A program made the translations under genes and the position numbers. 64,000 bases of DNA from the IMG/VR virus record IMGVR_UViG_2770939491_000001, one strand, 5' to 3'. The notes under the pieces were generated by a model. It was not told the origin of the DNA. It did no database searches and was given only the letters and a program-made list of their open reading frames with translations. Shown here piece by piece: positions 13,291 through 60,410 of the stretch. The DNA comes from an uncultured virus (IMG/VR IMGVR_UViG_2770939491_000001) (Duplodnaviria > Heunggongvirae > Uroviricota > Caudoviricetes). Numbering within the stretch: position 1 is the first letter of the stretch; each line of letters begins with the position of its first letter.

Positions 13291-16200
13291 TTAGCCCCTT
13301 GCAGTTGCCGTGTGCTGAAGCGCACGCATATCGCGAATCAACTCGGCCTTGCGGTACGCCTCATCGACGTTCGGCGTTGTCAAATTGATGGTGGTCGAGT
13401 TGTCGATGGTGGTCAGCGAGCCGCTTTCCCCGTTGCCCTTGAGGACTCGGTTAGCGGTGCCGGTCGCCGGCACTGAGGCGGCCTGGTACCCGGACTGAGC
13501 CAAGGTTTGGGATGCCTGCGTTGATGCCGACCGTGCCTGCTGCCACGTCGACAAGGTCTCCCCGTAATCGGTGACCGCAGAAGGGATCAGGTCCCGTGGA
13601 TCCGGGAGGCCGAGCGGATCGAGCGTGCTCGATACCAAGTCCTCGAACCCGGTCGACAAGGCGGATGTGAACCGCGACTGCGCGTTCACGCCGACCTGCT
13701 CGAACGTCTCTACGCCCGAGTCGGATGTGGTCGGCGTCGTGGACGGGGTCGGTGAGGTGACGGTGTCGGTGTTGAGTGGTTCCGGGATCGTCTGGGCCTG
13801 CGGGTTTTCAGCGACGCCAGCCTTTTGGGCTTGCATGTTGTCGATGAACTGCCGGAACATCAACCACTGGGGGTTGGTCAGGACCGCTTCGGGCAGGCCC
13901 GAGGTGTTCCACCCGAAGGTGTTGTTCTCGAAGATGCCGCCCTGGTCGTAACCGTGGCCCTTGCCCCAGTCGGTGGTCAGGTCGTTGCCGTACCGGGACC
14001 GGTAGTAGCGCAACGCTGCGACCATGTTCGCCAGCGGGTCTGTGCGGTCATTCGGTAGCGACGGGTCGCGGTGAGCCGCGAATGTGCCAGGAATGATCTG
14101 CAGGAGACCCTGGGCTTCGTTGCCGCCGGAGTTGACGTCCTGGACCTGTTGGATGATCGACGGGTTGCCACCGGACTCGGACTGGATCTGCGCCATCATG
14201 GCGTTGACCTGTGCCGGGTCGTCGGCGTTGAACCCTTCGCGGCGCATCGCTTCCATGGCGAGGTCACGCCACTGCTCGACGCCGTCGGTGGGGTTGTAGT
14301 TCGCTCCCCCACCACCGGATGAGCCGGAGCCCAACACTTTGGTGGCGAGCGCTTCGACCATCTTCTGGGCGAACGCCTTCGGGATCTTCCCGGCCTCCCC
14401 CAGGCCTTCGATGTCAGGAACGGAGTTCGCGACGTTGCGAAGTGGGTTCAGCAGGAGGGTGTTCGCGAGCGCGTTTCGGCCACTGCGGACCGCGCCGCCG
14501 AGGACTGACCCGATGCGGGAGAAGATCGACGCCTTCTCTTCATCGGACAGGTTGCCGAGGAAATCGTTTGCGCCCCAATGGACATGGTCCATGTGCTGGG
14601 CGTTCGTGGTTGCGCCGAAGTCGTGCGGCTGACCTTCGTCGAGGTTCTGCCACCCGTTGAGTGGCCAGTGGATCAGCTCCGCTGACTGTGGGTAGGTGTT
14701 GTAGATCCAGCGGGCGATTTCCTGCATCGGGCCGCCGAGGTCGATGGCCTTGCCCTGCATATGCAGGTCGTAGCCACTGCCTACGTCGGTGAAGCGCTTG
14801 CCCGAAGTCAGCACCGCATCGGGGATCGCGGTGCGCACCAGATCCCACAGTTGAGCCTGGATCGGGTCGAGCGGGTCGCTGGTCTGGACGACACCACCGC
14901 CGTCGGCGTAACCCTGGGGGCCATCACCTTGCGGCTTGGACTGCAGACCACCGCCTTGCAAGACCGCGCCACGCATCTTGTACATGGCTTCGTGCCCGCC
15001 CGCGGCTTTGACCTCGTCGGCCGTCCAGACGTGTTCGCCGTTGGACAGCCGGTACAGCCCGGCCTTGTCGTCCTTTGGTCCGCCGGGGCCCTTCACAGGG
15101 CCGCCGGGACCACCCATCCAACGGCCGCCGACGTGCCCGCCCGGTTCGGGGCGGGTTGGGCGGCCTGCGAAGAAGTCACCGGTTCCGGTGCCGACCTTGT
15201 CGATCGGATCCCAGGTCGGGAGGCCGAGTTTCGAGGCGACCTTGTTCCACAGTTCACCGAAGGTGTTGAGGATGTCGATGACCGCGTTGATCGGGCCCTG
15301 CAGTTTGCCCGGCAGGGTGCCCCAGGAGGTGCCGATACCGCCGGTGATGCCGTCGAAGAACGATGGCAGCCCGGTGAAACTGCTGGTCAGGTTGCCCAGT
15401 ACTGTGCTGCCGACGAGCGTTTCGACGACGGTCTTGACTTTGCTGCCCATGCTGGCCCAGGAGGCTCCGGCTTCCTGGTCGACGTGTTCGTCGGAGTCGA
15501 GGGCGACCTGCTTCTGCCCTGTCGACAAGGTTGGCAAAGCGCCACCGGAACCGGTGAGGCCGCTGATGATTCCGTGCAGCTTCGTGCCGAAGTTCAACCA
15601 GGAGGTGCCAGCCGAGTTCGAGTTCGTCTCGGCCGAAGTAGCCAGACCCTGGAAGTTCTCAGACAGCCCGGTGATCTTGGCGTTAGCCTCGTCGTCGTCT
15701 TCGGCCAGCCACTGCCACAGCCCACCGAGACCGGTAGCGCTCCGAGTGAGCGGCGAATCGAGGATCTTGTCGCCGAGGCTGCCTTCTTTGACGCCGGGGA
15801 AGAACCCGCCCGTATGGTCGAGTTTGTTGCCGTGCTTGTCGACGCGCTCGCCGTCGTAGTTGTAGTACTCGTCCCCCATCCAGAAGTTCTTCTTGGTCCT
15901 GGATGGATCGATCTCGGTGGGGAGACGCGGTCGGGTTTCGTTGAAGCCGTCGAGCCCGGCGCCATCGCTGCCTTGGGGGGACAGGATCGGCGGGTTCGAT
16001 GGGGTTTCGTCGAACCCGTTCAGTCCGCCACCGTCTGGGCCGGTGCGGTCTTCCGGCGCCTGCTCCGGGGGCTTCTGCCCGGTTGGTTCTGGTTCGGGGA
16101 GTAGCCCGAGGTCGTCGGCGATTTGGTACGCCGTCTTCATCAGGTCGACGATGGCTTGGACGGTCGCCTTGATGTCGGCGAAGAAGTCCTTCACCGCCTG

Positions 16201-18747
16201 CTGACCTTCGGGGGTCTTCAGGAAGTCGTTCCATTCGGACAGCGTTGTTTTGATGCTGTCGAGCCAGGATTCGCCGGTTTCGTCGCTGCCCCGGAAGAGG
16301 CTGTTGATGACCCCGCCGATTTGCTTGACGATCTCCCAGATTTCGTTGAAGGTGTCGAGCGATTCGCGAAGGAACCCTTTGAATTTGTTCTGTCCCTCTT
16401 CGGATTCCGCCCATTCGCGGAAGTCCTTCATCAAGTTCGCGAATCGTTCCGCACCTGATGGCATGAAGTCGGAGCCGACCCCTGCGAGGGACAGCATCGC
16501 CTGGAGCAGGTCGTTGATGCCGTCAAGCAGCGGGCCGATCGACTTGCGAGTGTTCTCGAAGATGCGGGCGAACTTCGACCGCGATGATTCGGTTTCCAGG
16601 TCGGCGAACGCCCGACGCAGGCCGCCATTGATCTCGGTAGCGATGCCGCCGAGCCCGGTTTTCAGATCGGGGATCCATTTGCGGACGAGGCTGCCGATGG
16701 AGTCGCCCATTTTGTCGAGCAGCTTTTCCTGCACGAACGAACGGAGTTCACCCAATGCTGGTTTCAGGTCCAGCATGGTTTGCACCAGCGCGCGTGCGGC
16801 CGGTGACAGGCTCGCCATCTTGCGGGCGAATTCGTCGGCGGCATCGCCGCCGTCATTCAACGCCTCAACGACCGCCTGCTGCGCCTCCGCCAGTTGGGAT
16901 TTGGCGTCAGTGAGGGACTGATGCGCATCAGTAAGCGTTTGGTTCGCGTCGGTCTCAGCCTGTGCGGCTTCGGCGACACGTTCCTGCGCCGCGACGACCT
17001 GGTCAGAGCCCTCGACGCCCTTGACGTTGGCCTCGTTGACCTGCTGTTGCAGTTCACGGGACTCACGCAGGGTGTCCTGCTGATCAGCCAACGCCTGGTT
17101 GTAGTTGTATACGGCGCGGCGCCGGTCGGTGGCAGATGCGTCGGAATCCTTGAAGGTTTCCTGCATCGCTTCCCAGGCTTCGGCGACCGCGATGGCGGCG
17201 CCTTCCTCGTTCAGCGAGGTTCGGCCGAGTTGCCGGTTAAGGTCTTCGAGTTCCTTGGTGGCGTCCTCGCGGGCCTTCGTCAGCGCCTTCTGCGCAGTGG
17301 CAGAAGCCTTCTGCGCCGACTGCACACCACGCTCAGCAGAGGCCACACCACGTTCAGCGGACGCAACACCACGCGCTGCCGCGGTAGCTTGTTTCTGGGC
17401 GGATGCAACGGCTTTCGCCTGCGCCTCTGCCTGCTTTGCGGCGCCTTCGCGGGCCTTCTCGGCAGCTTTGAACGCATCGGTGATGCCGCGGGTGCCGACC
17501 ACGATGGTGGCGATGACGGAGGCGAATCCGGCAAACGCTGCAGGCAGGAGCGCGACGACGCCGGCGGCTTGGGTGAGTTGCCCGAGCAGCGGGACCAATG
17601 ACACCGCGGCGAGCGCGATGAGCGCGACTTTGGCGACGCCGACCAGGTTCGTGAAGCTGAACAGGTTACGGATCGCGAGGTCGGAGGCGGCGTTGAATGC
17701 ACTGAGCCCAGCACCGAGGGCGCTGCCGATGGAACCTTGCCGGTTGCGGGCACGGTCGACGCGGTCGTGGGCGTCGGCCTCTTGGTTCATGAGGGAGCTG
17801 AGGCGGCCGGTGGCGTCGGCATGGTCGCGTCGGGCGCGGGCGAGGCGTTGTTCGGACGCGATCCGCTGCGACGCGGACGCATTGCTATTGGCCAGCACCT
17901 CGGCGTGGCGTTGCTCGGCGAGGTTGAGCCGGTCGAGGGTGTCGCCCTGTTGGCGGCGGGCGTTCTCCAGGCGGGCGAGGACGTTGGCCAGCTCGGCTTC
18001 CGCGCGTGCCACCGAGGCCCGGTCGACCTCCACCTGGAGGCGGATCGCGCGCACGGTCTGGGAGAAGATCCCGCCACGGCGGCCCCGCAACGCATTGCGG
18101 GCGGCACCGTTGGCGCCGATCGCTCCGACGTCGTCCCCGACGGACGCGGCGAGAGACCGCAGCGCCATCAGCTGAGCGACTGCCGCGGTGGTGTCGACGT
18201 TGACGTTCATCGACAGCGGGCTGGCGGCGACCGCGATGCGGAAGTCCTCGATCTGCCGGACGGCTTCGCTCAGGTCGAGCTTCATCCGCAACTCGGCCTC
18301 GGGCAAAGTCGATTTCAGGCCGCGAATCTTCTGCCGGAGTCCTGCTTCGGACAGGCGCAGGGTGACGGTGGCTTCGACGCCGGCGGCGGCTTCATTGACT
18401 TTGCCGCGCAGGGTGGTGCGGAATCCTTTCGCCAGGTCCGGCGAGAACAGGATCTTCGTACCGGCTTCGCGGGCTTCGGTTTTCGCCGCTGCTTTCAGTT
18501 CGGTGCGGAACCGGGGCGCCAGCTTGTACCCGAATTCGATCTTCGCGCCAGCCTTTTCGGCGGCGTCTTTCGCCTTCGTCTTGACGTCGGCGTTGAAGCC
18601 CTTCGCCAGGACCGGTTTCAGAGTCACATTCAGCGACTCGTCGATCGGTTTGAGAAGGGCTTTCACCGATGCCCGGAAATTGCTCGCGAGTGCCGGGCGG
18701 AGGTAGATGCGGGCCGAGCCAGCGTTGTACGCACCGAAGGTGGCCAT
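13291..18747 (-). CDS. Tape measure protein with cell-wall hydrolase domains
   Basis: 1818 aa Ala-rich coiled coil; SLT motif QSESGGNP...GLLQIIPGTF; HMQGKAID...HMDHVH peptidase-like motif. Confidence 0.95.
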   Translation of the reverse strand: MATFGAYNAGSARIYLRPALASNFRASVKALLKPIDESLNVTLKPVLAKGFNADVKTKAKDAAEKAGAKIEFGYKLAPRFRTELKAAAKTEAREAGTKILFSPDLAKGFRTTLRGKVNEAAAGVEATVTLRLSEAGLRQKIRGLKSTLPEAELRMKLDLSEAVRQIEDFRIAVAASPLSMNVNVDTTAAVAQLMALRSLAASVGDDVGAIGANGAARNALRGRRGGIFSQTVRAIRLQVEVDRASVARAEAELANVLARLENARRQQGDTLDRLNLAEQRHAEVLANSNASASQRIASEQRLARARRDHADATGRLSSLMNQEADAHDRVDRARNRQGSIGSALGAGLSAFNAASDLAIRNLFSFTNLVGVAKVALIALAAVSLVPLLGQLTQAAGVVALLPAAFAGFASVIATIVVGTRGITDAFKAAEKAREGAAKQAEAQAKAVASAQKQATAAARGVASAERGVASAERGVQSAQKASATAQKALTKAREDATKELEDLNRQLGRTSLNEEGAAIAVAEAWEAMQETFKDSDASATDRRRAVYNYNQALADQQDTLRESRELQQQVNEANVKGVEGSDQVVAAQERVAEAAQAETDANQTLTDAHQSLTDAKSQLAEAQQAVVEALNDGGDAADEFARKMASLSPAARALVQTMLDLKPALGELRSFVQEKLLDKMGDSIGSLVRKWIPDLKTGLGGIATEINGGLRRAFADLETESSRSKFARIFENTRKSIGPLLDGINDLLQAMLSLAGVGSDFMPSGAERFANLMKDFREWAESEEGQNKFKGFLRESLDTFNEIWEIVKQIGGVINSLFRGSDETGESWLDSIKTTLSEWNDFLKTPEGQQAVKDFFADIKATVQAIVDLMKTAYQIADDLGLLPEPEPTGQKPPEQAPEDRTGPDGGGLNGFDETPSNPPILSPQGSDGAGLDGFNETRPRLPTEIDPSRTKKNFWMGDEYYNYDGERVDKHGNKLDHTGGFFPGVKEGSLGDKILDSPLTRSATGLGGLWQWLAEDDDEANAKITGLSENFQGLATSAETNSNSAGTSWLNFGTKLHGIISGLTGSGGALPTLSTGQKQVALDSDEHVDQEAGASWASMGSKVKTVVETLVGSTVLGNLTSSFTGLPSFFDGITGGIGTSWGTLPGKLQGPINAVIDILNTFGELWNKVASKLGLPTWDPIDKVGTGTGDFFAGRPTRPEPGGHVGGRWMGGPGGPVKGPGGPKDDKAGLYRLSNGEHVWTADEVKAAGGHEAMYKMRGAVLQGGGLQSKPQGDGPQGYADGGGVVQTSDPLDPIQAQLWDLVRTAIPDAVLTSGKRFTDVGSGYDLHMQGKAIDLGGPMQEIARWIYNTYPQSAELIHWPLNGWQNLDEGQPHDFGATTNAQHMDHVHWGANDFLGNLSDEEKASIFSRIGSVLGGAVRSGRNALANTLLLNPLRNVANSVPDIEGLGEAGKIPKAFAQKMVEALATKVLGSGSSGGGGANYNPTDGVEQWRDLAMEAMRREGFNADDPAQVNAMMAQIQSESGGNPSIIQQVQDVNSGGNEAQGLLQIIPGTFAAHRDPSLPNDRTDPLANMVAALRYYRSRYGNDLTTDWGKGHGYDQGGIFENNTFGWNTSGLPEAVLTNPQWLMFRQFIDNMQAQKAGVAENPQAQTIPEPLNTDTVTSPTPSTTPTTSDSGVETFEQVGVNAQSRFTSALSTGFEDLVSSTLDPLGLPDPRDLIPSAVTDYGETLSTWQQARSASTQASQTLAQSGYQAASVPATGTANRVLKGNGESGSLTTIDNSTTINLTTPNVDEAYRKAELIRDMRALQHTATARG

Positions 18748-19885: not shown

Positions 19886-20800
19886 TCAGGCGTAGGTGAC
19901 CGCGTAGGCGGTCGACGGGCCGGTCGCGTTGGTGACGATCACGTTGTGAGAACCCGCCGTCTTGGCTGGGGTGGTGATCGCCAGTGTGTTGTCGTCGACC
20001 AGCGTGTAGTCGGTCGCGGCGGTACCACCCACAGTGACGGCGGAGACGCCCGTGAAGTGGTTGCCCTTGAGCACCACCGATTCGCCACCGGCCGCGGCGA
20101 GCGAACCCGCAGGCAGGTGCGAGGTGACCGTCGGAACAGCGGCGGTCGCGGAGAAGCCCATCGACGCAACGAGATTCGCGACGCCAGGACCGCAGATGAC
20201 GTTCTTCAGCGAGTAGCCAAGAGTCGAGTCGATCTTGCCCGCCCAGGTGATGTTGTAGTTCAGGGCGCCGTCCTGCGACCAGGACTGCTCACCGACCTCG
20301 GTGACGATCGCACGCGGCAGGATACGCAGGATGTAGATCGCGTCGGCGCCGTCGCCGTCGACCATGCCGAAGATCAACCGGTGGTAGCGGGTCGACGGGC
20401 TGGTGGGGTCGTTGTACTGGATTTCGTTGGTCGTCGCGTCGGCGGTGACCGCGGACAGATCCATGCCGGAGTACAGCTCAAGCGAACGCCGCTGGGTCTG
20501 CAGCAGGGTGGTCGACACCGTCACCTTGCGGGAGATGATGTCGGTGCGAGGCGGCTCGAGCGCGCCCCACGCTTCGATGTCGTTGGATTCGACCTCGGGG
20601 CGGAACGTGGGTGGTGCGTCCTTGGCGGTAAAGCCGAGCGACTCGAAATCGGTGAGGGACTGGAATTCAGCCGAGACGCCGGAGGTGAACGCGGCGGGGA
20701 TGGTTGCGTCGTCGTCGCCGATGAGCACGAAGCCCTTGTTCGGGCGGCGAATCAGCTCCGGCTTCCAGGCCGCGAGCTGTTCGAAAGTGACAGCAGGCAT
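19886..20800 (-). CDS. Major tail protein with C-terminal Ig-like (IPT/TIG) domain
   Basis: LGFTAKD...IEAWG..EPPRTDI motifs; PTVT...GGESVVLKGNHFTGVSAVTVGG. Confidence 0.9.
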   Translation of the reverse strand: MPAVTFEQLAAWKPELIRRPNKGFVLIGDDDATIPAAFTSGVSAEFQSLTDFESLGFTAKDAPPTFRPEVESNDIEAWGALEPPRTDIISRKVTVSTTLLQTQRRSLELYSGMDLSAVTADATTNEIQYNDPTSPSTRYHRLIFGMVDGDGADAIYILRILPRAIVTEVGEQSWSQDGALNYNITWAGKIDSTLGYSLKNVICGPGVANLVASMGFSATAAVPTVTSHLPAGSLAAAGGESVVLKGNHFTGVSAVTVGGTAATDYTLVDDNTLAITTPAKTAGSHNVIVTNATGPSTAYAVTYA

Positions 20801-20884
20801 GAAGGTTTCCTTGATTTGGGCACACCGAGAACCCCGCCAGCCATCGAGCGGCCCGGGGTGGTGTGAAGAAGAGAGAGGCGGAGG

Positions 20885-21256
20885 CTAGGCGCGGGGCCTG
20901 CGGTAGGAGAGGCGGACCGTCGCGGACACACCGCGGGCGTCGCGGCGTTCCGGCGGGATGTATTGGCCGCCGGTCGCTTCCTCGGCAACGTCGATCAAGA
21001 ACCCGCCTGGCGCGGTGTTCCCGGCGGCCAGGATCCGTTCTTGGCCTGCGGTTTTCAGGGTCTTGGATTCGGCGCGCGTGGCGGCGACGTACTCGACGTC
21101 GATCACGGGGTTGTCGGCGACGCCGTCTTCCCGACCGCCGACGCGGGTGACGTAGATGTAGGGCGGGTCGATCTCATCGGACTCGAAGGTGACTACGGGG
21201 GCGATGTCGTCGAGGAGCGCTTTCATCACGTCGTCGAAATCTGGGTAGGGAAGCAC
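20885..21256 (-). CDS. Tail terminator / neck protein
   Basis: PYIYVTRVGG motif; directly before the major tail. Confidence 0.75.
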   Translation of the reverse strand: MLPYPDFDDVMKALLDDIAPVVTFESDEIDPPYIYVTRVGGREDGVADNPVIDVEYVAATRAESKTLKTAGQERILAAGNTAPGGFLIDVAEEATGGQYIPPERRDARGVSATVRLSYRRPRA

Positions 21257-21558
21257 TAACCCTCCACGTCTCGGATGAAGTCGCGCATCACGTGCTCGGG
21301 GCGGTTCCAGCGGGTGCCGTGTTCACGGAAGCGGGCGTAGTAACCGGACGCGTAGGTGACACCTTGCTGTTTCCCGGTGGCGTCTAGTTCGGTGAATGCT
21401 TCGGTATGGGTGGCGTTGTAGCCCGTTCTCCATTTTGAGCGCATGGCCCATCTATCGGCCCCTTGTTCCGCCACTTCTTGGAGGAATTCGGCAAGCTCTG
21501 GAGAACCTCGAAAGAATGCGTCCATATCCATGCTTGAGCCGTCGTATTCCAATGGCAT
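21256..21558 (-). CDS. HK97 gp10-like neck protein with recoded N-terminus
   Basis: RTGY...[10 protein letters not shown] motif; probable start MPLEYDG at 21558. Confidence 0.75.
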
Positions 21559-21591
21559 CACCTGCTTGAATTTGCTAGACTTGAAATCGAA

Positions 21592-22353
21592 ATGACTGAC
21601 TATCGTTGTCGCGTTTGCGATTCCAGCTATTCCACCGTTGGCCCGCGCGGGCGAGAACCGCGCGCACACTTCTGCGACAATTGCTTGCCGTACCATCATT
21701 GGTGTTACCGATGCCACCGAGCACGCCTAATATCCCAGTTCGCACCGTGGCCATCCAGGGCAAATGGGCTTGATTCGTGTTGCATTCCGTGCCGAAACCA
21801 CATGACGCTCAAGCTGCTGGACTGCGCAGGCTGTAACGCGACCTTCATGACCGATGCGCGCCGAATGGTGGATGGTCGCCTTAAAGTCCATAACACCAGA
21901 TCGAAATACCTGTGCGACACCTGCGTGGAGAGGGTCGCAGTATGCGTTGCGTGCTCTACAGCGAAACCTCTGTCTGACTTCGGAAAAGGAAGGCTGAACC
22001 GTCGCGGAGTCAAGTATCACTGCAAAACATGCCGGGCCGAGGAGTGGAATCGCCTTCCGAAGCTACGTAAACGCAGGGTCTACAAGTACGGACTTACGGT
22101 CGACGACTACGAGCGTATGTGGAAGGCTCAGGACGGGAAGTGCGCTATTTGCCGCCTACCGCAGAAGCGCTATTCTGATGGTCGACTCATCGATCTCGCC
22201 ATCGACCACTGCCATGCAACAGGCCAAGTTCGCGGCCTGCTATGTTCTGGCTGCAATCGAGCTATCGGATTGGTAGACGACGATCCGGCGATCTTGGAGG
22301 CGGCGGCAGCCTATTTGCGGCAGGCGTCGACTCGAACGCTGCGGAGCGCGTAG
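21592..22353 (+). CDS. Endonuclease VII-family homing endonuclease, antisense insertion
   Basis: [11 protein letters not shown]...CAIC...[25 protein letters not shown]; several N-terminal CxxC pairs; lower GC. Confidence 0.9.
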
Positions 22354-22356
22354 GCA

Positions 22357-22722
22357 TCAGACCCGTCGTATTCCACTGTTGCCGTCCTTCGCGATCTTGA
22401 ACCGCACACCTGTCGACCAGCCGGTGAACGGGTTCGGGGTTTCGCGGACTTGCCCGTCGATGACGAATTCCCTTGTGCCCAGCCGGATTCGGTCTGTCTC
22501 TAGGACGTCCGAACCGTGTGGAGCAGTGACCTGGGCGACCAACATGCGTTGCTCACCGTGGGTCGAGTCCTCAGTGTCTGTCGCCCATTTGAGATCGCAG
22601 GGCCCGATCTGGTGCTCGACCACCGTCGAGTTGACGGGGTCGCCTTCCCAGTTGCGGGCGGCGCCACGAATGACGGTGAGCATGGTCCCGGCGGGGTAGG
22701 TCGGGTGCGCGTAATTCACCAT
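22357..22722 (-). CDS. Head closure (stopper) protein
   Basis: DVLETDRIRLG...FVIDG motif; follows the adaptor. Confidence 0.75.
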   Translation of the reverse strand: MVNYAHPTYPAGTMLTVIRGAARNWEGDPVNSTVVEHQIGPCDLKWATDTEDSTHGEQRMLVAQVTAPHGSDVLETDRIRLGTREFVIDGQVRETPNPFTGWSTGVRFKIAKDGNSGIRRV

Positions 22723-23141
22723 CAGTCCGGCCTCGTGGATGCAAGCCCGGCGTTGCGAAGGATCAGCAGCGCGGCCGAATGCAGCTGCTTGAGGGCACGT
22801 TCGACTTCGGCGCCGGTGATGGAGTCTCCGTAGACGACCGACCCGCCGTCGGCGGTCTGGGATGCGACCGCGAGTTCACGGCCGACAGTGCCGGCGACCG
22901 GGTTGAGCCCGGCCAGTGACCACATGGCAGCTTGGGCGCAGGTTGCGTCCCGGAACGCTTCAGCGATCGCGGTGTCGGTGGGGAGCCCGGCGGTGTCGAC
23001 GTCGTAGTGGTCGCACATGGTGACGCGGCGGACCAGGATCGACGCGAACCGCAGCAGCAGCGCGGCGTTGGCGGGGGCCGTGCCGGTCAACCATCCGCCG
23101 GCGATGAGGTCGTCGGGTTGGGCGTAGATCAGCACAGCCAT
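22722..23141 (-). CDS. Head-to-tail adaptor
   Basis: YAQPDDL...ATCAQA...LRNAGL pattern; follows the capsid module. Confidence 0.8.
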   Translation of the reverse strand: MAVLIYAQPDDLIAGGWLTGTAPANAALLLRFASILVRRVTMCDHYDVDTAGLPTDTAIAEAFRDATCAQAAMWSLAGLNPVAGTVGRELAVASQTADGGSVVYGDSITGAEVERALKQLHSAALLILRNAGLASTRPD

Positions 23142-23144: not shown

Positions 23145-23429
<285 letters not shown>

Positions 23430-23501
23430 TGCGGCTCTCCAAAAGTGTTGGTAGGCAACCACTCCCCAGCGCCACCCGGTTGAGGTGGCGCGGGGTGGAG
23501 G

Positions 23502-25186: not shown

Positions 25187-25331
25187 GAATGTGCCTCCTG
25201 GACACGTGAAAACACCCGTGGCACCAGGCCGAACGGGGTGTTGGAATGACGAAACCCCCAGGGCCAGATGGCCGGAACTGGGGGTTATTTGCACCCGCGC
25301 AAAATGGGCGGGAAGTCTTCAATTATTTGAG

Positions 25332-25416
25332 CGGAGATTTGAGGAATCGAACCCCTGCCCCGTGAGGGGCCGCGCCGCTTTCAAGGCGGTCCCGCCACCA
25401 TGGCGGTTAAATCTCC
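25332..25416 (-). tRNA. Non-canonical 8/4 allo-tRNA-like tRNA-Ser (anticodon UGA)
   Basis: 8-bp acceptor GGAGATTT/AAATCTCC; 4-bp T stem GGGG/CCTC; long D stem CCGCCA/TGGCGG; loop CTTGAAA; long V arm; G discriminator. Confidence 0.85.
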
Positions 25417-25417
25417 T

Positions 25418-25491
25418 TGGCTGGCCTGCCAGGATTCGAACCTGAACCTTCTGAACCAGAGTCAGACGTGCTGCCGTTGCACTACAGGCCG
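25418..25491 (-). tRNA. tRNA-Gln(CUG)
   Basis: Cloverleaf with TCTGA-ctCTGgt-TCAGA, TTCGAAT T loop, encoded CCA. Confidence 0.92.
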
Positions 25492-25492
25492 G

Positions 25493-25566
25493 TGGCAGGC
25501 TCGCCAGGATTCAAACCTGAACGCCCGGAGCCAAAATCCGGAATGCTGTCGTTACATCACGAGCCT
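25493..25566 (-). tRNA. tRNA-Gln(UUG)
   Basis: CCGGA-ttTTGgc-TCCGG; acceptor AGGCTCG/CGAGCCT; encoded CCA; variant T loop TTTGAAT. Confidence 0.88.
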
Positions 25567-37285: not shown

Positions 37286-37523
37286 CAGGGGCCTTCCGGG
37301 GTCTCGCACACGGGGTCGTGACACATGCAGCGCAAACCGTCGATGACGCAGCCCAGATTCACGTCGGCGTCGTCTTCGTGGCCGTGTTCGTCGCGCCAGG
37401 CGGCGGTTTCGCGTTTCTCGCGTTGACGGGCGGATCCGTGGGTGGGCGGATGGCAGCAGCCGATCCCCACGGGCGGGCGGGCGGACGGCGTCCACGTCTC
37501 GACGACGCAACTTTCCGTCCTAG

Positions 37524-37597
37524 ATGCGGTGGCCGGACTCGAACCGGCGGCCTCTGGGTTATGAGCCCAGCGTGCTACCAACTGCAACCACACCGCA
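37524..37597 (-). tRNA. tRNA-Met(CAU), initiator-like anticodon stem
   Basis: CTGGG-ctCATaa-CCCAG; GCCGG-TTCGAGT-CCGGC; acceptor TGCGGTG/CACCGCA; no encoded CCA. Confidence 0.88.
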
Positions 37598-37603
37598 TTG
37601 ACG

Positions 37604-37685
37604 TGCGCGAGGTGAGAGTCGAACTCACAAGACCGAAGCCGCTGGAACCTAAATCCAGTGCGTATACCAGTTTCGCCACTCGCGC
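37604..37685 (-). tRNA. tRNA-Leu(UAG)
   Basis: CTGGA-ttTAGgt-TCCAG; long variable arm; acceptor GCGCGAG/CTCGCGC. Confidence 0.92.
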
Positions 37686-37725
37686 GAAAACCAGCCCGTA
37701 CCCGAAAGGGCGGGCTGATCGATTG

Positions 37726-37799
37726 CCAGGACGGGGAGAATCGAACTCCCGAAACAGCGGTTTTGGAGACCGCCTGGGCGACCAACAGCCCACGTCCCA
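37726..37799 (-). tRNA. tRNA-Trp(CCA)
   Basis: GCGGT-ctCCAaa-ACCGC; GGGAG-TTCGATT-CTCCC; weak acceptor top with two G-U pairs. Confidence 0.8.
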
Positions 37800-37800
37800 A

Positions 37801-38160
37801 TGCGGCAGGCGCCCTGCCGGGCGTTCTGCCATGTAGTCGCCCGCCGAAGCGTACTGGGGCTTTCGCCCTGCTCCGCGCATCCTGTGCGCGGCAATTCCCG
37901 TGTCCTCAGGAGGAGGCCGAAGCCCGCGAGGCCCGAGGCGAAGTTAGTGGGTGGGGAGTTGCCTAGACTCCGACCGGGGCACGGACCGTAAGGATTAGTA
38001 CCCGGTGCTGCGATTTGCCCGCTGAGGCATCGGTTTCCGGCAGCTACGCCTTCCCTCAGGCACTTGCCCGTCAGGTTGCCGACATCGCACACATTCGCGG
38101 CCCGATCGCGCGGTAGCCGCTCACTCTGTCACCACCAGCGTCGGCCGCTAAACCGACGCT
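37801..38160 (-). ncRNA. Large structured RNA between tRNAs, candidate GOLLD-like
   Basis: Many hairpins (GGGC-GAAA-GCCC, GGC-TTCG-GCC, CCGCGCA/TGCGCGG, AGCGTCGG/CCGACGCT) and long-range pairs CTGAGG/CCTCAG and TGCGAT/ATCGCA; no credible ORF. Confidence 0.6.
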
Positions 38161-38163
38161 TTG

Positions 38164-38237
38164 TGCCCTCCGCTGGGGTCGAACCAGCAACATCCGGGGT
38201 TTGAATCCGGCACCTCTGCCAATTGGGTCAGAAGGGC
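38164..38237 (-). tRNA. tRNA-Leu(CAA) with short variable loop
   Basis: Acceptor GCCCTTC/GGAGGGC; loop ttCAAac; GCTGG-TTCGACC-CCAGC; variable region only ATGTT. Confidence 0.8.
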
Positions 38238-44203: not shown

Positions 44204-45140
44204 GATCGGGCACCCCCAACCGCAGCAACGGGACGCCCAACCGGTGCCACAGACGGCACACCTGCAGCCGATCATCGAAGGCACCGAGGACATGAAAGCG
44301 GTTGCGGATCTTCTCGTCGAAAATCTCGTACTTCACCCGGAAATCCGGCCGCTTGTCGCCTGCTTTGCGCATGTGCAGTTCGGTGAATGTCACGCCGTGG
44401 TTGAGCAACCAGTCAGCGGTCTCGGTCATGCAATCCGAATCACGGCCGGACAGGACAATGATCGCCGAATCCTCCGCCAGCTTCCGCACCACCTCGATCG
44501 TGTGCTTGATCGGAATATCGCGATGAACCTGCGTGTAGTCGTAAATCCCACGATCCGGATGCTTCTGCGCGACGGTGCCGTCAACGTCCACGATCCACGC
44601 CGGCGGCAGCACCGGATTCGGCACGTACGGGGTCGGGTAGAAATGCAGGTCCGGTGACGGCTTCACGGTCGGCCAGTTCTTGCGGGGGAACTTCCGGGCG
44701 AGCGCACGGATCGCGTCCTCCCCCACCATCCGACCACCCGCCGCGCCGCGCTCAGCGTCACGGCGCACGCATTCGTCGACCGAGGTGTCCAGGTCGATCA
44801 CCGCAATGTCAGCACCGTGCAACGCGGCGAAGTTCGCCCAACCGCGGGTCCACTGCGGGCGCAAGTTCATGGCGTCGACGAAAACGTCGTAGCCCGCGTC
44901 GAGCAGGGCGGCAGCCTGTGCGCGTTCAGCTTTCGAGATGATCTCTTCCTGCGCGGGCGACAGGCGGCCGGACGCGCCGAACAGGGTCGCCCGCATGTCG
45001 TCACGTGATACGCGCGCGAGACGCGGGTTGTCCTCACGCATCCGGCGGAACAGACTAGATTTGCCAGCTCCGGGAAGACCACGTGGCAGGACGATCTGTC
45101 GCCGCGTCGGCGGATCGATCACATCTTTCACTTCGGTCAT
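44190..45140 (-). CDS. pnk: Polynucleotide kinase / 3'-phosphatase (T4 Pnk-like)
   Basis: P-loop GLPGAGKS, VSRDDMR, VDAMNL; HAD DVDGTVA, LSGR, FDDR. Confidence 0.92.
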   Translation of the reverse strand: MTEVKDVIDPPTRRQIVLPRGLPGAGKSSLFRRMREDNPRLARVSRDDMRATLFGASGRLSPAQEEIISKAERAQAAALLDAGYDVFVDAMNLRPQWTRGWANFAALHGADIAVIDLDTSVDECVRRDAERGAAGGRMVGEDAIRALARKFPRKNWPTVKPSPDLHFYPTPYVPNPVLPPAWIVDVDGTVAQKHPDRGIYDYTQVHRDIPIKHTIEVVRKLAEDSAIIVLSGRDSDCMTETADWLLNHGVTFTELHMRKAGDKRPDFRVKYEIFDEKIRNRFHVLGAFDDRLQVCRLWHRLGVPLLRLGVPDHDDF

Positions 45141-45709
45141 TACGCGGCCACCCCATTCGTCAGCTGCAGGTACCGCTGGTCCGCGAAAGCGGCCCAATCC
45201 AGATGTGGATTGCGACGCTTGGCTGAATGGGCGATGTCGCATGCCCGACAGCTTCGCTTTCCCCGACGGGATAGCGCTGCAACGAGATTCGGCTCTACCA
45301 GCTCGTGCCCCCGCGGGCAGTGGGTCTTACGCGCCTCTTTGTGGGTGCCGTGCCCCACAGCGTCCTTCTGATTGTCAGAGACAGTGCCCCACGCCAAGTT
45401 GTCCACCACGTTGTTGCCCGGGTCGCCATCAAGGTGCCTGCAAACCGCGCCAGCAGGCGCTGGCCCGATGAAATGCGTAGCCACCAGTACGTGCACCTGG
45501 ACGGTCGTTGTGAGCCCGTCTCGCGACAGGCAAACGCGATGGTGCCCGTCTCGAACCACGTCTTCGCGCAGTATCCGGGATCGCACATGCCACTCTCCGG
45601 AGAAGTTCCCAACGTGCGAAACGATCCGATCCAACGACCGCACACGTCCCTTGTCCGAAACCTCGTACAACCGCTCCCACCCGACGACCGGGCGCCACTC
45701 CTCGCTCAC
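45140..45709 (-). CDS. NUMOD4-HNH homing endonuclease
   Basis: EEWRPVVGWERLYEVSDKGRVRS; CRHLDGDPGNNVVDNL; THCPRGH...CRAC. Confidence 0.92.
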   Translation of the reverse strand: MSEEWRPVVGWERLYEVSDKGRVRSLDRIVSHVGNFSGEWHVRSRILREDVVRDGHHRVCLSRDGLTTTVQVHVLVATHFIGPAPAGAVCRHLDGDPGNNVVDNLAWGTVSDNQKDAVGHGTHKEARKTHCPRGHELVEPNLVAALSRRGKRSCRACDIAHSAKRRNPHLDWAAFADQRYLQLTNGVAA

Positions 45710-46971
45710 GCCGCGTCCCCCAACGACTCCAGGTCGACGACGCCCTTGTCGTTCTGCTTCGTTTCGAAGGCGTAGAACGCGGGAGACTTCGCCTTGGCGA
45801 AGTAGGGCACGATGCCCTCGACACGTAGGACTACGCCCTCGTCCACGGTCTTGCCAGGATCGAGGGGCAGTGCTTGCCGGTAGCCCTCGTCGTGGAACCG
45901 CTTGTCGAGCCAGTCCTCGGCGACGAAATCAGCGTGCAGACCCGACCACAACTCGGGCACGTGCATCAGGTCGCGGTCACGGCAGAATTCCTTCACCGCA
46001 TCCCACGACAGGTCAACAGAGATGCCCTGCTCATTGACCACCGCGACGCGGTACACGAGCAGTTCGGCGTGGCCGACCGGCATCCCATAGGTGTAACCAG
46101 CTTGCAGGGCTTTGCCGTTGGGCTCCCAGCCTACGAGCTCGCCATACACGATGTAGTTCTTCGGCAGGAGACCGTCGAGCTGCTTACCGTAGTGCGTCCA
46201 CACGTCGTTGTCGTAGAAATGCTGCTGGTCAGGGTTGTTCGCGTCCTTCACGACCCGACGAGAGGCGTAGACGTAGTCGAATTCGGTGAGCTGAACATTG
46301 ACGCCGAGTTTGCGGCCGATCCGTTCGAGCCAGGTCAGCTTCCGTGCGACCAGCGTGTGGCCGACACGGATTGAGGTGCCGTGCACCTTCTGGCTTGCCA
46401 CGATGCGGGTGTCGGCGGGGATCTGCCGCTCTACACGGAAGTACTGATCCGTCGAAACATGCTCCGGGAGGTAACGCTGGTCGACGCGGGTGAACGTCTT
46501 CCGCTTGTTCTTCTCCACGAGCGGTTGGGTGGCCTTGCTCGCCACCTCGTACTTGCGGCAGATTTCGTGCCCGTTCAGCTCGTCGAACGTGTCTCCGGGG
46601 GTGAGTTTGGTGATGTCGAAGCCGGTGTGCGCCAACGACTCGAGCGGCATGAACAGCGCGTCGGACCGGTGGCCACGGAGCTTGATCGCTCGCACGCGGC
46701 GGGTCTTCTCCAAGTACCCCTTCTCAGCGGGGTCCGCATTCAGCTCCGGCTCGCGGTGCAAGTTGTTCGCGTGCGCAAACTCCTCGGACAGCTGGGTTTC
46801 GGCTGTGAACACGATGCCGACATCACCGGGGGCCCGATCCTTGCCGACGATCGCTTGAAAACCGAGGACCGGGGCGCCGGCGATGTTGTCGCAACCGTCG
46901 AGCGCGTTCACTGCGGTCAGACGGACGACAACGGCAGCGTAGTTGGGGTTTTTCGGGGTAGTGAGGGCCAT
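45706..46971 (-). CDS. RNA ligase (Rnl2-like with N-terminal OB-like domain)
   Basis: Motif I QKVHGTS, VYGELVG, EGVVLR, AKAKS; N-terminal RVRAIKLRGHRS. Confidence 0.88.
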   Translation of the reverse strand: MALTTPKNPNYAAVVVRLTAVNALDGCDNIAGAPVLGFQAIVGKDRAPGDVGIVFTAETQLSEEFAHANNLHREPELNADPAEKGYLEKTRRVRAIKLRGHRSDALFMPLESLAHTGFDITKLTPGDTFDELNGHEICRKYEVASKATQPLVEKNKRKTFTRVDQRYLPEHVSTDQYFRVERQIPADTRIVASQKVHGTSIRVGHTLVARKLTWLERIGRKLGVNVQLTEFDYVYASRRVVKDANNPDQQHFYDNDVWTHYGKQLDGLLPKNYIVYGELVGWEPNGKALQAGYTYGMPVGHAELLVYRVAVVNEQGISVDLSWDAVKEFCRDRDLMHVPELWSGLHADFVAEDWLDKRFHDEGYRQALPLDPGKTVDEGVVLRVEGIVPYFAKAKSPAFYAFETKQNDKGVVDLESLGDAA

Positions 46972-46974
46972 ACG

Positions 46975-47017
46975 TGTACTGTACGCCATACTTTACGAAA
47001 GTACAGCATACTTTCAC
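46975..47017. promoter_or_regulatory. Tandem operator-like palindromes upstream of the RNA ligase
   Basis: TGTACTGTA-cgcca-TACTTTACG and ACGAAAGTA-cagca-TACTTTCAC; 15 bp identical (inverted) to 1738-1752. Confidence 0.7.
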
Positions 47018-47035
47018 TGCTTAACCGCTCAGCTT

Positions 47036-47797
47036 TCAGCCCGGTTCACGCAGCGCCGCCAGGTCCGTGACCATCACATTCTCGCTCATCGGCCGACCGT
47101 CCATGTCGAGGATGTGCACCTCGGTCCGGTAGTCGCGGCCGACCAGGGGCGCGTCGAGGCGGCAGTGGTAGTGGCCCGCGAATAGGCACTTCGGCCGGAC
47201 CTCGTCGACGACACGGCGCAGCAGTTCCCGGTGCCGTTGCGCGGCAGCGATCTCGGGCTCCGGGAACCCGTGCGGGTTGCCTTCGATGCACGGGATGCGG
47301 ACGCCGTCAGGTACGTCGTGACAGATCATGACGTCCGCTCGGCCACCGTTCGCCGCGGTGACTGCTTCGCCGATGGTGATGGTTTCGCGCGCCCACCATT
47401 CGCCGCGGGGCCGCCACGGCCGATCCACGGAGTGCGCGCCGCCGAGCGCAAGGAACGACACCCCCGACCAGGTCCACCTATACCCGCGGGGCAGGTAGAA
47501 GATGTTCGGGCGCATCGGGATCGCGGTTTGACCGTGTTCAGTGACTAGCGTGCCGAGTTTGTCGTGGTCGTCGTGGTTTCCGTCGGCGAAGCCCAGCAGC
47601 AGCCCGGTGTCCTCGAGCGCGCGCTGCACTCGGGCCATGAAGCTCGGCGCGAACTTATACGCGAAGTCGCCCACGTGCAGGATCGCCTGCGCGCCGTGCT
47701 CGGCCGCATACCGAATCGCCCGATCGGCATGGAAGCTGTTGCCGTGCCAATCGCCGGCGACCGCGACGCGCTGGGGATTGACGGATTCCCAGATCAC
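47036..47797 (-). CDS. Calcineurin-like metallophosphoesterase
   Basis: GDWHG, HVGDF, DGNHD, GGAHSVD, ICHD and GHYH motifs. Confidence 0.92.
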   Translation of the reverse strand: MIWESVNPQRVAVAGDWHGNSFHADRAIRYAAEHGAQAILHVGDFAYKFAPSFMARVQRALEDTGLLLGFADGNHDDHDKLGTLVTEHGQTAIPMRPNIFYLPRGYRWTWSGVSFLALGGAHSVDRPWRPRGEWWARETITIGEAVTAANGGRADVMICHDVPDGVRIPCIEGNPHGFPEPEIAAAQRHRELLRRVVDEVRPKCLFAGHYHCRLDAPLVGRDYRTEVHILDMDGRPMSENVMVTDLAALREPG

Positions 47798-47963
47798 GTG
47801 AGCTGTCCTTCGATTTCGCTACGACGATACAAGCCAGGAATGGAGTCTCCCTCTGCGAAATCGAAGAGAACTCCCACCGTGTCGCCTGAGACGTAAGCAA
47901 CTGTGGCCGCACGCTGCTGGCTGCTGTACGGAACCATGACCTTGTCGCCGGGTTTCATCACGA

Positions 47964-48152
47964 TCACCGCCGCCCTCCCCCGGCCATGGCGGCGATCATC
48001 ATCTCCACCAACCGCATGGCCTGGGCTTCGGTGAACCCGACGCCAGTGAGCGCGGTGTACTGGCCGTACACGGCCGCTGCCACTTGCCGAGCGTCCGAAG
48101 ACGGCTCGACAGGTGGGCCGCCGGTGAAGTCGGGGATACTCTCGAAGTTCAT
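47964..48152 (-). CDS. Small hypothetical protein
   Basis: YTALTGVGFTEAQAMRLV motif. Confidence 0.65.
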   Translation of the reverse strand: MNFESIPDFTGGPPVEPSSDARQVAAAVYGQYTALTGVGFTEAQAMRLVEMMIAAMAGGGRR

Positions 48153-48493
48153 GCGGCGCGGTCGATCGTGAAGTTGCCGATGTCGCGTGCCTTCTGGATG
48201 AGGGCGCCGATATCACCGAGGTCGCATGACGGATTGGACGCTGCCGCGAATCGCTTGTTCAGGTGTGTGATCAGCACCTGTGGTGTCGTGATTTCGGTCA
48301 GGTCACCGATCGCGGTGTCCTCGAACGGGCTTGGGCAGGAGCAACCGGCATCGTCGGCCATGTACAAGCGATGGGTGGTGTTGTTCTGCCAGACGACCGT
48401 GTAGTTGAAGCAGTAGTTGCCGTCGGAGAAGTCGAGCTCACCGACGATGCTGAGCCCGGACTTTTCGGGCGAGAAGTAGATGTTCGCACGCAT
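48149..48493 (-). CDS. Hypothetical protein
   Basis: YCFNYTVVW...DDAGCSCPSPFED. Confidence 0.7.
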   Translation of the reverse strand: MRANIYFSPEKSGLSIVGELDFSDGNYCFNYTVVWQNNTTHRLYMADDAGCSCPSPFEDTAIGDLTEITTPQVLITHLNKRFAAASNPSCDLGDIGALIQKARDIGNFTIDRAA

Positions 48494-48497
48494 TGGT

Positions 48498-49139
48498 TTA
48501 CTCCAGAACTCCGTCGGGGGTTGGTGCACCGATTAGTTGGCCCAGCATCCGGTAGTACTCAGGCGCCCAATGCATCCCGCATGCGAGGCACTCGGCGCTC
48601 GACAGGTTCGCGCGTAGAGCATACTGGCTCACCGTTTCTCCGGCACTGTCCTGCCCCGACACGATGGTTTCCCCGCACGACGGGCACGGCGCCCGCAGTT
48701 CCCACACGTGTTCGTCGTCGAGGAGTCGGCGGGCTCGCACCGCCCAGGTGTCGATGTCGCGGGCGAGCCTGCGCACGTACCCGACTTCTTCGGGCGCCCA
48801 GGCGTTGTCGGCGAGCGCGTACAGTCGGCGCACCGTCAGCTCTCGACCGGGCACCGCGGCGGCACCGATCGACCACTCCCCTACCCGGCGGTCGATCAGC
48901 TCGAGCAACGACAAAGCGTCCGACCAACCGGGCGCCCGTGAACCAGGTTCGGGGCGTCGCGCGCCACCGCCGTCGGCTCGTTCCCCGTAGCTGGCTTCTC
49001 GCAGCTGGTCGTAGAGCGAGTCCACGGGGATCGGTACTTGGCGGCCGTCGCGTTCGACGTGTTCGACCTGCATGCCGACGAGTGCGTGGACGGCGTCGGA
49101 GAGTGCGGCGCGGGCGCCGGCGACTAGCTCGTCATTCAC
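48498..49139 (-). CDS. Phage protein with C-terminal zinc ribbon (possible regulator)
   Basis: SLYDQLREA...PGSRAP; CPSCG...CLACG..W. Confidence 0.75.
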   Translation of the reverse strand: MNDELVAGARAALSDAVHALVGMQVEHVERDGRQVPIPVDSLYDQLREASYGERADGGGARRPEPGSRAPGWSDALSLLELIDRRVGEWSIGAAAVPGRELTVRRLYALADNAWAPEEVGYVRRLARDIDTWAVRARRLLDDEHVWELRAPCPSCGETIVSGQDSAGETVSQYALRANLSSAECLACGMHWAPEYYRMLGQLIGAPTPDGVLE

Positions 49140-49435
49140 GCTGTTCGTCGTCTCCTTCGCTGTAGGGCAGGATGCGGATCACCCCGTCGGCAGATGGGAC
49201 GAGCGGGTGAAATTTGGGCGTCGAGTAGTCACCCGGATTGACGGCCTCGGTGAGCGTTTCGATCGGTTCGCGGGAGCCGGTTGGGTCGGTCATTTCACGC
49301 TCCGCGGGTCGTGTTCGGTGTTCGCGGGGTCGGCGCCGCGGGTTCAGCATTCGCAGTCAGCCCAGTGCATTCCGCAGGTGACGCAGTTCTCGCCGTCCAA
49401 CCAGTCGAAGTCGTCGCCGACCTCATCACCAGTCA

Positions 49436-49744
49436 TCAGCGGCCGTATCCAAGGTTGTGGCGCCGTTCCTCCGCCTTACGGAGCGCTTCGTCAGTGTTCC
49501 CGGTGACGTACATGACGTTCGTGACCTTCGTCGACTGGGAGGCTTCGTACTTGGCTTTCCAGTCGGCGGCTTCTGCCTTGTACTGAAGTGCAACCAAGTC
49601 GGCGAATACCACCAGAATGGCGAACCCCGCGATCAGCCAACTGCCGGACAGCACATGCAGGAGCCCGATGGCAGGCCACACGATGAGGGATAGCTTTTCG
49701 AACCAGTGGGCGACCTGCCAGGCCCGGCGTACGTCGTTGATCAT
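49436..49744 (-). CDS. Membrane protein
   Basis: Two TM helices. Confidence 0.6.
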   Translation of the reverse strand: MINDVRRAWQVAHWFEKLSLIVWPAIGLLHVLSGSWLIAGFAILVVFADLVALQYKAEAADWKAKYEASQSTKVTNVMYVTGNTDEALRKAEERRHNLGYGR

Positions 49745-49926
49745 TTTTCGTTCTCCGTTTCGCCACCAAATAGGCGGGCGGGCGTGATGGCCCGGTTGTC
49801 GTGTTGGAGGGCGTGCGCTTTTTGGAGGGCCCGGATTTCGTCGTCAGCGAGGTGACGGCCGAGCCAGAGTTCGCAGCCGTGCGATACGCACGTGATTTTT
49901 TGCACGCCTTTGTCAATCGGTGTCAT
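49741..49926 (-). CDS. Small hypothetical protein
   Basis: 61 aa, coupled. Confidence 0.5.
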   Translation of the reverse strand: MTPIDKGVQKITCVSHGCELWLGRHLADDEIRALQKAHALQHDNRAITPARLFGGETENEK

Positions 49927-50179: not shown

Positions 50180-50217
50180 AAAAGAATGCCCGCCACCAGT
50201 AACAGCGGCGGGCATTC
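50180..50217 (-). terminator. Intrinsic terminator
   Basis: 11-bp stem gaatgcccgcc/ggcgggcattc followed by TTTT on the minus strand. Confidence 0.75.
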
Positions 50218-50225
50218 AGCGATTA

Positions 50226-60409: not shown

Positions 60410-60410
60410 C

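Follow-up and report, generated by a model that had tools for sequence, protein, structure and literature searches.

A probable homing-endonuclease cassette of the EndoVII type in the stopper/neck gene overlap of a Nocardia prophage

In the prophage described here, a free-standing gene coding for an endonuclease VII (EndoVII)-type nuclease lies antisense between two virion genes, those of the head-closure protein (hereafter the stopper) and of the neck protein. The DNA that we analysed, called the window throughout, is a stretch of 64,000 nt from IMG/VR record IMGVR_UViG_2770939491_000001, and all coordinates refer to it. Comparison of the locus with its relatives suggests that the nuclease gene probably belongs to a homing-endonuclease cassette of the DHHRN (F-CphI-like) type, which would occupy the 20-nt stopper/neck overlap of this Nocardia siphophage-like prophage and carry an imported 5′ end of the neck gene. 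An earlier note, made from the letters of the window alone, had drawn attention to the locus, and several of its claims are taken up below.

Results

The stopper/neck overlap is present on both sides of the nuclease gene

The 13-mer CCGTCGTATTCCA occurs exactly twice in the window (21539-21551 and 22363-22375), whereas 0.15 matches are expected from shuffled sequences and two or more were found in 1 of 100 shuffles. Extended, it forms a direct repeat of 19 nt with 17/19 identity (21536-21554 and 22360-22378). The earlier note had reported a repeat on both sides of the antisense EndoVII gene, which we confirmed and lengthened (17/19 over 19 nt, 13 of them exact). It had further read the upstream copy, on the minus strand, as a stranded neck start overlapping the stopper end, and the downstream copy as the opening of the intact neck open reading frame (ORF). 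Both readings hold: the upstream copy is GTG GAA TAC GAC GGG TCT GA, and the downstream copy opens an ORF that runs from ATG 21558 or TTG 21552 to 21256 (Table 1).

The closest relative of the locus belongs to a prophage of Nocardia halotolerans (locus L034), with protein identities of 91% for the stopper (P0078), 98% for the tail terminator (97.5% by tblastn) and 77% for the neck protein. At the left junction, similarity to L034 stops right after the stopper TGA. The last 25 nt of the stopper gene are 100% identical between the two, as is the 22-nt stub that holds the stranded start (22/22). Past this stub, in the tail of the nuclease gene, native neck sequence with convincing similarity to L034 was not found, a single common 9-mer being probably a chance match. 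Beyond the nuclease gene, the displaced native end of the neck gene thus persists as this 22-nt stub, which is also needed as the 3′ end of the stopper gene. Since both genes share 20 nt, an insert between the overlapping stopper and neck genes forces a duplication of the overlap; an insertion point in the gene overlap accounts for the duplication of exactly 20-22 nt and for a break to the base after the stopper stop. As read from these junctions, the event is best described as an insertion into the 20-nt gene overlap and not as a split in the neck body. Of the earlier proposal that the cassette had split a neck gene, the duplication of the overlap stood, but the break falls exactly after the stopper stop codon and not within the body of the neck gene.

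At the other end, the spacer carries on the minus strand an AGGTGA located 5 nt upstream of the in-frame TTG 21552, which aligns exactly with the GTG/ATG neck start of the relatives. The real neck start may thus be TTG 21552 rather than ATG 21558, the start chosen by the gene caller (P0052). The nuclease gene is tightly packed between its neighbours, its start being 34-40 nt from the neck start and its stop codon 3 nt from that of the stopper gene. The neck ORF of the window is open and full-length, and it aligns end to end with 17 relatives. No Rfam match to an intron or other RNA family was obtained at E ≤ 1 on either strand of positions 20800-22900; moreover, the nuclease ORF is opposite in strand to the neck gene and the neck ORF is complete without it, which is not the arrangement of a nuclease borne by an intron or intein.

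Relatives retain the overlap and lack the insert

We drew relatives from 60 related genomes, the viral collection, one genome per species and metagenomes. Forty locus rows had both the stopper and the neck gene, and they represent 24 distinct junction sequences. Only the junction of the window is occupied (1/24), all of the others being without insert (23/23), so that the insert shows a sporadic presence at a fixed site among close relatives. In the 18 close relatives (neck identity of at least 58%), the neck gene starts inside the last stopper codons. Sixteen of these relatives have an overlap of 20 nt, and the other two have overlaps of 17 nt (L046) and 11 nt (L011). Five distant relatives have a stopper/neck spacing of −1 to +18 nt. 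A metagenome scan with the neck profile revealed three loci, all empty, one of them on the same contig as L011. The neck proteins of the relatives start with V/M-E/D-Y/F-D, and several start exactly with VEYDGS. The overlap is not fixed at 20 nt, as L046 and L011/L012 show; in L011 (11 nt) the stopper stop falls earlier.

The earlier note had expected relatives free of EndoVII to show a contiguous stopper-neck overlap with a VEYDGS-type start, and this is what we observed (18/18 close relatives). Its broader suggestion, a non-splicing mobile nuclease that brings a new gene start, is borne out as far as the structure is concerned (the overlap in empty relatives, the stub identical to L034 at 22/22, the lack of an intron), while mobility is a property that we infer.

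One stopper homologue, P0107, encoded on an 82,897-bp contig, ends in ...GVRFTITHVR. As it is without the conserved IAKDG-SGVRR tail in which the neck start is encoded, the corresponding prophage may have a different junction arrangement.

The neck 5′ end is a diverged tract with an abrupt breakpoint

Between 22356 and 21488 the window could not be aligned to L034. Identity to L034, calculated over successive 45 nt, was 0.60-0.69 from 21552 to 21373, 0.78 from 21372 to 21328 and 0.87-0.96 beyond. Mismatches amounted to 47/340 (14%) in the stopper 3′ end, 68/197 (35%) in neck nt 1-197 and 46/472 (10%) downstream. The maximum chi-square method placed the breakpoint at neck nt 197, which is codon 66 (range codons 65-71, 21341-21359), with a maximum value of 60.3 that was reached by 0/2000 permutations.

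The GC content at third codon positions (GC3) is 0.57 in neck codons 1-46, 0.62 in codons 47-70 and 0.64 in the nuclease gene, compared to 0.86 from neck codon 71 to the end and 0.77-0.89 in the neighbouring structural genes. High GC3 had been predicted for empty relatives, and over neck codons 7-46 these have 0.69-0.97, compared to 0.54 in the window. Over the same codons, amino acid identity to the 17 relatives is ordinary (0.51-0.72), and third-position identity at identical residues is 0.31 (0.13-0.47) for the window versus 0.58 for 80 pairs of relatives in the same band of amino acid identity. From codon 71 to the end, third-position identity is ordinary (0.73 for the window versus 0.68 among relatives). 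The synonymous sites of the tract look saturated against all relatives.

The tract of A/T-ending codons described in the earlier note is present, but its length, given there as the next ~45 codons, is ~65 codons by the breakpoint. Likewise, the N-terminus had been called recoded: the diverged low-GC3 5′ end is real, but instead of recoding it is better read as a putative imported allele that has amino acid changes too. The probable source of the tract is a diverged allele of lower GC3 that arrived with the nuclease gene. With their common low GC3, the nuclease gene and the neck 5′ tract form one contiguous block of lower GC (Table 1).

In the tree of flanking DNA, the window and L034 are sisters (support 100/99) and the end branch of the window is 0.064. 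In the tree of the neck 5′ tract (18 rows), the end branch of the window is 0.65, the longest, versus a median of 0.18, and is ten times the flank value. The free tree of the tract pairs L034 with L035 and not with the window.

The nuclease has a complete catalytic motif at its C-terminus

The nuclease scores 81.1 bits against PF02945 (cut-off 23.6), and no second gene of that family occurs in the host genome. According to Fang et al. (2018, PMC6083498), the Endo VII catalytic motif consists of an N-terminal CX2-4C, a central DHxH, a conserved R and a C-terminal CX2C followed by N, and a motif at the C-terminus marks the endonuclease clade while a motif at the N-terminus marks the resolvase clade. 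The motif is complete in the protein of the window (C184/C187, D205, H206, H208, R214, C218/C221 and N222), and all of these residues are invariant columns of the nuclease alignment. The catalytic domain is C-terminal (aa 160-243 of 253) and lies behind ~150 N-terminal residues with eight CxxC pairs.

The closest homologue, P0002 from N. brasiliensis (69% identity over 97% of the query), is the sole close relative among 51 matches, and the eight CxxC pairs of the N-terminal region are conserved in it. With respect to positions 21592-21801 of the window, the gene caller had proposed a shorter model, P0001, of 183 aa (72% of the ORF) with an internal Met start. The 253-aa ORF is the better model, because the alignment with P0002 begins at residue 1 and takes in the first CxxC pairs.

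Phages frequently carry EndoVII-like genes (1031 phage records at E ≤ 1e-8, all at <60% identity). We found no close homologue of the nuclease in 266 other Nocardia species genomes, in 400 family genomes or in a scan of genome contigs with a two-sequence profile, suggesting that the gene is dispensable. In scans for copies of the cassette, the best non-self nuclease matches had 47% identity (partial) and 35% identity (full length), and a scan of viral contigs with the nuclease returned only the window's own contig and one partial match of 33%. A scan of positions 21000-22800 detected 1 terminator-like site inside the nuclease gene versus 1.8 expected. Among sequencing runs, one was identified as a possible source of this DNA, and no RNA run was found to contain it.

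Protein records point to a second occupied lineage

Protein records of N. brasiliensis suggest a second, divergent occupied copy. A 3207-bp N. brasiliensis contig is recorded for the nuclease P0002, for a neck homologue (P0069, 65%) and for a stopper homologue (P0106, 61%); the case comes from protein records alone, and the co-location of the three genes is deduced from the species label and the equal recorded contig size. The accessions for this contig are WP_432421584.1 (nuclease) and WP_280466068.1 (neck). In every empty relative, the last stopper residues correspond to the first neck codons in the other frame. P0069 begins with MEYDST, and P0106 ends with SSGVRRN and a stop codon, encoding VEYDGT in the overlapping neck frame. 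Since the tail of P0106 encodes VEYDGT, unlike the start of P0069, the two genes could not overlap natively. As in the window, the stopper gene would thus terminate on a start other than the one that the neck gene uses.

Genomic context of the locus

The prophage contig corresponds to positions 2770-44513 of the window (41,744 bp) and is part of a 7.0-Mb genome; an identical contig is present in the viral collection. Positions 1-2769 and 44514-64000 are outside the prophage contig (another contig or N). A blastn search of GenBank phages found no close sequenced relative, the best being a 5% match to Gordonia phage Jace. The structural genes lie on the minus strand and run from the adaptor through head closure, neck and tail terminator to the major tail protein (Table 1); the first four have the same order in the annotation of Gordonia phage BrutonGaster. 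Pfam and PHROG searches with the neck protein gave no match. Against PDB profiles it gave a weak match to 9mu2_P, an ‘HK97 gp10 family phage protein’ (E 0.059), and from this weak profile match and its position between head closure and tail terminator the protein may be HK97 gp10-like.

Three further features of the prophage were observed. An ORF of 1818 aa (13291-18747, minus strand) resembles a tape-measure gene and, by the impression that its translation gives, has a long C-terminal extension with peptidase and lysozyme-type motifs. An ORF of 105 aa (23145-23462, minus strand), located between the major capsid and adaptor genes, is mostly a Pro-Glu repeat (PEPEPE...), with a GC content of up to 0.75. 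Seven tRNA genes are found at 25331-25566 and 37523-38237 (minus strand), namely Ser(TGA), Gln(CTG), Gln(TTG), Met, Leu(TAG), Trp and Leu(CAA). Four of the seven tRNAs decode codons (UCA, CAA, CUA and UUG) that end in A or G, are infrequent at high GC and are used in the low-GC3 neck tract.

Table 1. Features of the stopper/neck locus and of the adjacent structural genes (window coordinates).
Feature	Position	Strand	Evidence
Antisense free-standing EndoVII-type nuclease, 253 aa	21592-22353	+	PF02945 Endonuclease_7, E 5.6e-23, aa 160-243; phrog_2633, E 1.5e-39
Replacement neck 5′ tract, codons 1 to ~66, low GC3	21356-21552	-	Mismatch, GC3, synonymous divergence
Whole foreign lower-GC block, ~1.0 kb (nuclease gene, spacer and neck 5′ end)	21356-22356		Contiguous GC dip, 0.43-0.60
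Stranded native neck start, left overlap copy (CA, GTG, EYDGS codons and stopper TGA)	22357-22378	-	22/22 versus L034
21-codon dead-end ORF from the stranded start; native ribosome-binding site in the stopper 3′ end kept	22311-22376	-	Read from sequence
Right overlap copy with the new neck start (TTG for GTG, two synonymous changes, stopper-frame stop lost)	21533-21554	-	Repeat 17/19; codon comparison with L034
Divergent 39-nt spacer, nuclease ATG to neck start; lowest GC of the region	21553-21591		GC 0.43 over 21560-21619
Head-to-tail adaptor	23141-22722	-	phrog_541
Head closure (stopper), 121 aa, intact, TGA 22359-22357	22722-22357	-	phrog_501, head closure Hc1, E 3e-12
Neck gene, intact; 100 aa from ATG 21558, 98 aa from in-frame TTG 21552	to 21256	-	ORF
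Tail terminator, native flank	20885-21256	-	PF23841, E 4.4e-08; phrog_123
Major tail protein	20800-19886	-	phrog_476

Discussion

A proposed homing mechanism and its alternatives

We read the locus as a homing cassette, made of the nuclease gene and a replacement neck 5′ end, because its layout matches that of WHO elements, mORF gene hybrids and MobA (see below). The cassette unit would comprise the nuclease gene, the spacer and, from a diverged allele, neck codons 1 to ~66. In the resulting arrangement, the left overlap copy ends the stopper gene and leaves a stranded neck start, and the right overlap copy, beside the nuclease gene and with its own ribosome-binding site, restarts the neck gene. 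Once expressed from its antisense gene, the nuclease would cut alleles that lack its gene, either in the overlap or a short distance downstream, and the break would be repaired from a cassette-bearing genome by gene conversion. The stopper 3′ end and the stub would serve as left homology arm, and the right crossover would fall inside the neck gene near codon 66. The recipient would thereby gain the nuclease gene together with the neck 5′ end, whose many base differences should guard it against re-cleavage.

Several observations weigh against this mechanism. The nuclease gene runs opposite to the late operon, and the scan of 21000-22800 revealed no sigma-70 consensus promoter for it (0 promoter-like sites). 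The search for a donor allele was negative: the tract reaches at most 67% nucleotide identity to any relative, and no lineage was outstanding in a protein-level donor search, in which the L034 product ranked fourth of 25 (0.71 versus a best of 0.75). On the tract, the approximately unbiased (AU) test does not reject a clade of the window and L034 (p 0.33, 192 columns). As judged from these trees, the anomaly of the tract is one of branch length or rate and of composition, and not of proven topology. Empty relatives, too, vary more in the neck 5′ end than in its flanks (identity between L002 and L035 is 0.90 in the stopper 3′ end, 0.64 in the neck 5′ tract, 0.91 in the neck 3′ end and 0.71 in the tail terminator), so part of the drop in identity of the window is ordinary. 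The stopper side has no visible co-converted tract, given the full identity to L034 of its last 25 nt, which is compatible both with a primary, one-sided event of illegitimate recombination in this lineage and with homing whose left crossover fell in the strongly conserved 3′ end of the stopper gene. Only two occupied lineages are represented, one of them deduced, with nucleases 69% identical and no sign of recent spread. In N. brasiliensis, the gene order, the orientation and the single-contig location are themselves deductions from protein records.

Part of this evidence would suit a moron-like capture without homing, in which an EndoVII gene with another role (e.g. a junction resolvase), or a decayed one, was gained once through illegitimate recombination of two phages at the stopper/neck boundary, the neck 5′ end having come from the other parent at an ordinary mosaic joint and the locus not being targeted. 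The abrupt left junction without co-converted flank, the variable and mosaic-prone neck 5′ end of the empty relatives, the rarity of the cassette (the window plus one deduced case) and the lack of a promoter for the antisense gene all point that way, and EndoVII genes are found at many positions in actinophages, for example in the gap between the tail terminator and major tail protein genes of BrutonGaster. We nevertheless consider such a capture unlikely. The joint falls to the base where both overlapping genes stay whole, and a second nuclease with 69% identity appears tied to the same two genes, again with a non-overlapping stub, which argues for a persistent site-linked unit. Furthermore, a C-terminal motif behind a Cys-rich N-terminal region is characteristic of the endonuclease clade and not of the resolvase clade (PMC6083498), and none of the other junctions (23/23) has a nuclease gene.

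It is very improbable, in our view, that the tract arose in situ without import, the resident 5′ end being duplicated at the entry of the nuclease gene and then diverging mostly synonymously toward A/T, driven by selection to escape the nuclease or to carry signals of the antisense gene. The AU test, which cannot reject the window and L034 as sisters on the tract (p 0.33), agrees with such a history, as do the amino acid identity of the tract to the L034 product (0.71, near the best of 0.75), the rare AGA that the window and L034 have in common at neck codon 42 and their common residues L-D-x-T-G-K-Q at codons 56-62. Yet ~70% of the synonymous third positions of the tract differ from L034, whereas the flanking DNA differs by 10-14% overall, and we know of no local mutational process giving such synonymous divergence. 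The GC3 of the tract also equals that of the adjacent nuclease gene, as expected from a joint arrival, and codons 51-57 (EAFTEL) resemble P0054 and L035, not L034. That the repeat arose by chance or in assembly has in its favour the abundance of short repeats in GC-rich DNA and the two matches of the 13-mer in 1/100 shuffles, but the repeat falls on the start and the first six codons of a conserved gene, shows 22/22 identity with the native L034 junction and lies among three intact ORFs on a 41,744-bp contig found independently in the viral collection, making this explanation barely credible.

Comparison with known gene-end replacements

The proposed homing cassette resembles several known elements. 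WHO elements occur at FBA1 in Torulaspora and Lachancea yeasts (Coughlan et al. 2020, PMC7282813; Osborne et al. 2026, 10.64898/2026.08.13.744650). As in the proposed cassette of the window, a homing endonuclease gene lies beside an essential gene, one end of which is replaced by a diverged allele, the displaced native end is kept as a fragment on the far side, and allele identity shows a sharp step at the breakpoint (85% versus 99% in yeast, 65% versus 90% here). In contrast, the WHO nuclease is LAGLIDADG and intein-derived while that of the window is an EndoVII ββα-Me enzyme, and WHO swaps the 3′ end whereas here the swap concerns the 5′ end, start codon and ribosome-binding site included. 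The fragment measures just 22 nt here and persists because the upstream gene ends in it, and the setting is a prophage instead of a eukaryotic nucleus. Allele-specific cleavage has been demonstrated for WHO; here the layout is known from sequence alone.

The MobA element of T4-like phages, with its ‘homR’ segment and the gene 60 bypass (10.1101/2022.08.31.505936; Edgell et al. 2010, PMC2988022), is likewise a free-standing phage homing endonuclease located inside an essential coding region without intron or intein, with a clean break on one side. The insert similarly carries a diverged homologous copy of the target-bearing segment of the host gene (67-81% DNA identity for MobA), and closely related genomes without insert exist. 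However, MobA is an HNH enzyme encoded in sense orientation, unlike the antisense EndoVII gene, and it splits a protein in two and needs a 50-nt translational bypass for immunity, whereas here the protein is whole and has a new start.

Fungal mitochondrial mORFs make ‘gene hybrids’ in atp6, atp9, cox2 and nad3 (Beaudet et al. 2013, PMC3630166, which also cites the Allomyces atp6 case). The common traits are an endonuclease ORF flanked by the expressed foreign gene end and the displaced native end, a low identity between the copies (63.5% in atp6) and a native copy close to that of relatives. The mORF duplications are C-terminal, with LAGLIDADG or GIY-YIG enzymes often in frame with the host gene, whereas the window has an N-terminal duplication, an antisense nuclease gene and only a minimal remnant of the native end.

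With F-CphI and the DHHRN family (PMC6083498), the nuclease shares the Cys pair, DHxH, R, and Cys pair followed by N, a C-terminal motif behind a separate N-terminal region, and the status of a phage-borne, free-standing gene. F-CphI differs in adjoining a group I intron in cyanomyophage psbA, in what is called ‘collaborative’ homing, whereas the locus of the window has no intron. The two proteins also have N-terminal regions of unrelated length, that of the window's nuclease being rich in CxxC pairs, and the likeness concerns motif and layout. Closer in host, gene 29 of BrutonGaster is also an EndoVII-domain gene (35% identity, aa 65-243) among the head-to-tail genes of an actinobacterial siphophage. 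Unlike the gene of the window, it is in sense orientation, in the gap between the tail terminator and major tail protein genes, as an ordinary intergenic insert.

Implications

The principle of replacing a gene end is already in print for yeast, fungal mitochondria and T4-like phages. In the open-access literature, we found no description of an EndoVII-type cassette replacing a 5′ gene end in actinobacterial phages. On the reading proposed here, a selfish nuclease can occupy the coding DNA of essential virion genes without intron, intein or protein splitting, by duplicating a 20-nt overlap and bringing its own gene start. The strategy would thus be extended in three ways: to the EndoVII family, to the 5′ end and to actinobacterial prophages. 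For annotation, the locus gives two warnings, namely that a short ORF with a perfect start after the stopper gene can be a relic, and that a locally diverged, low-GC gene start beside a nuclease gene is likely imported. The window and the N. halotolerans prophage, with ~90% identical flanking DNA, also form a natural allele pair for the study of target recognition and immunity. More tentatively, and with slightly less than even confidence, we suggest that EndoVII nucleases of actinobacterial phages might be the prokaryotic counterpart of WHO, pairing a nuclease with a diverged 5′ end that confers immunity, targeting tightly overlapping virion genes, using the stranded overlap as a homology arm and driving the exceptional diversity of the 5′ half of the neck gene in this prophage family.

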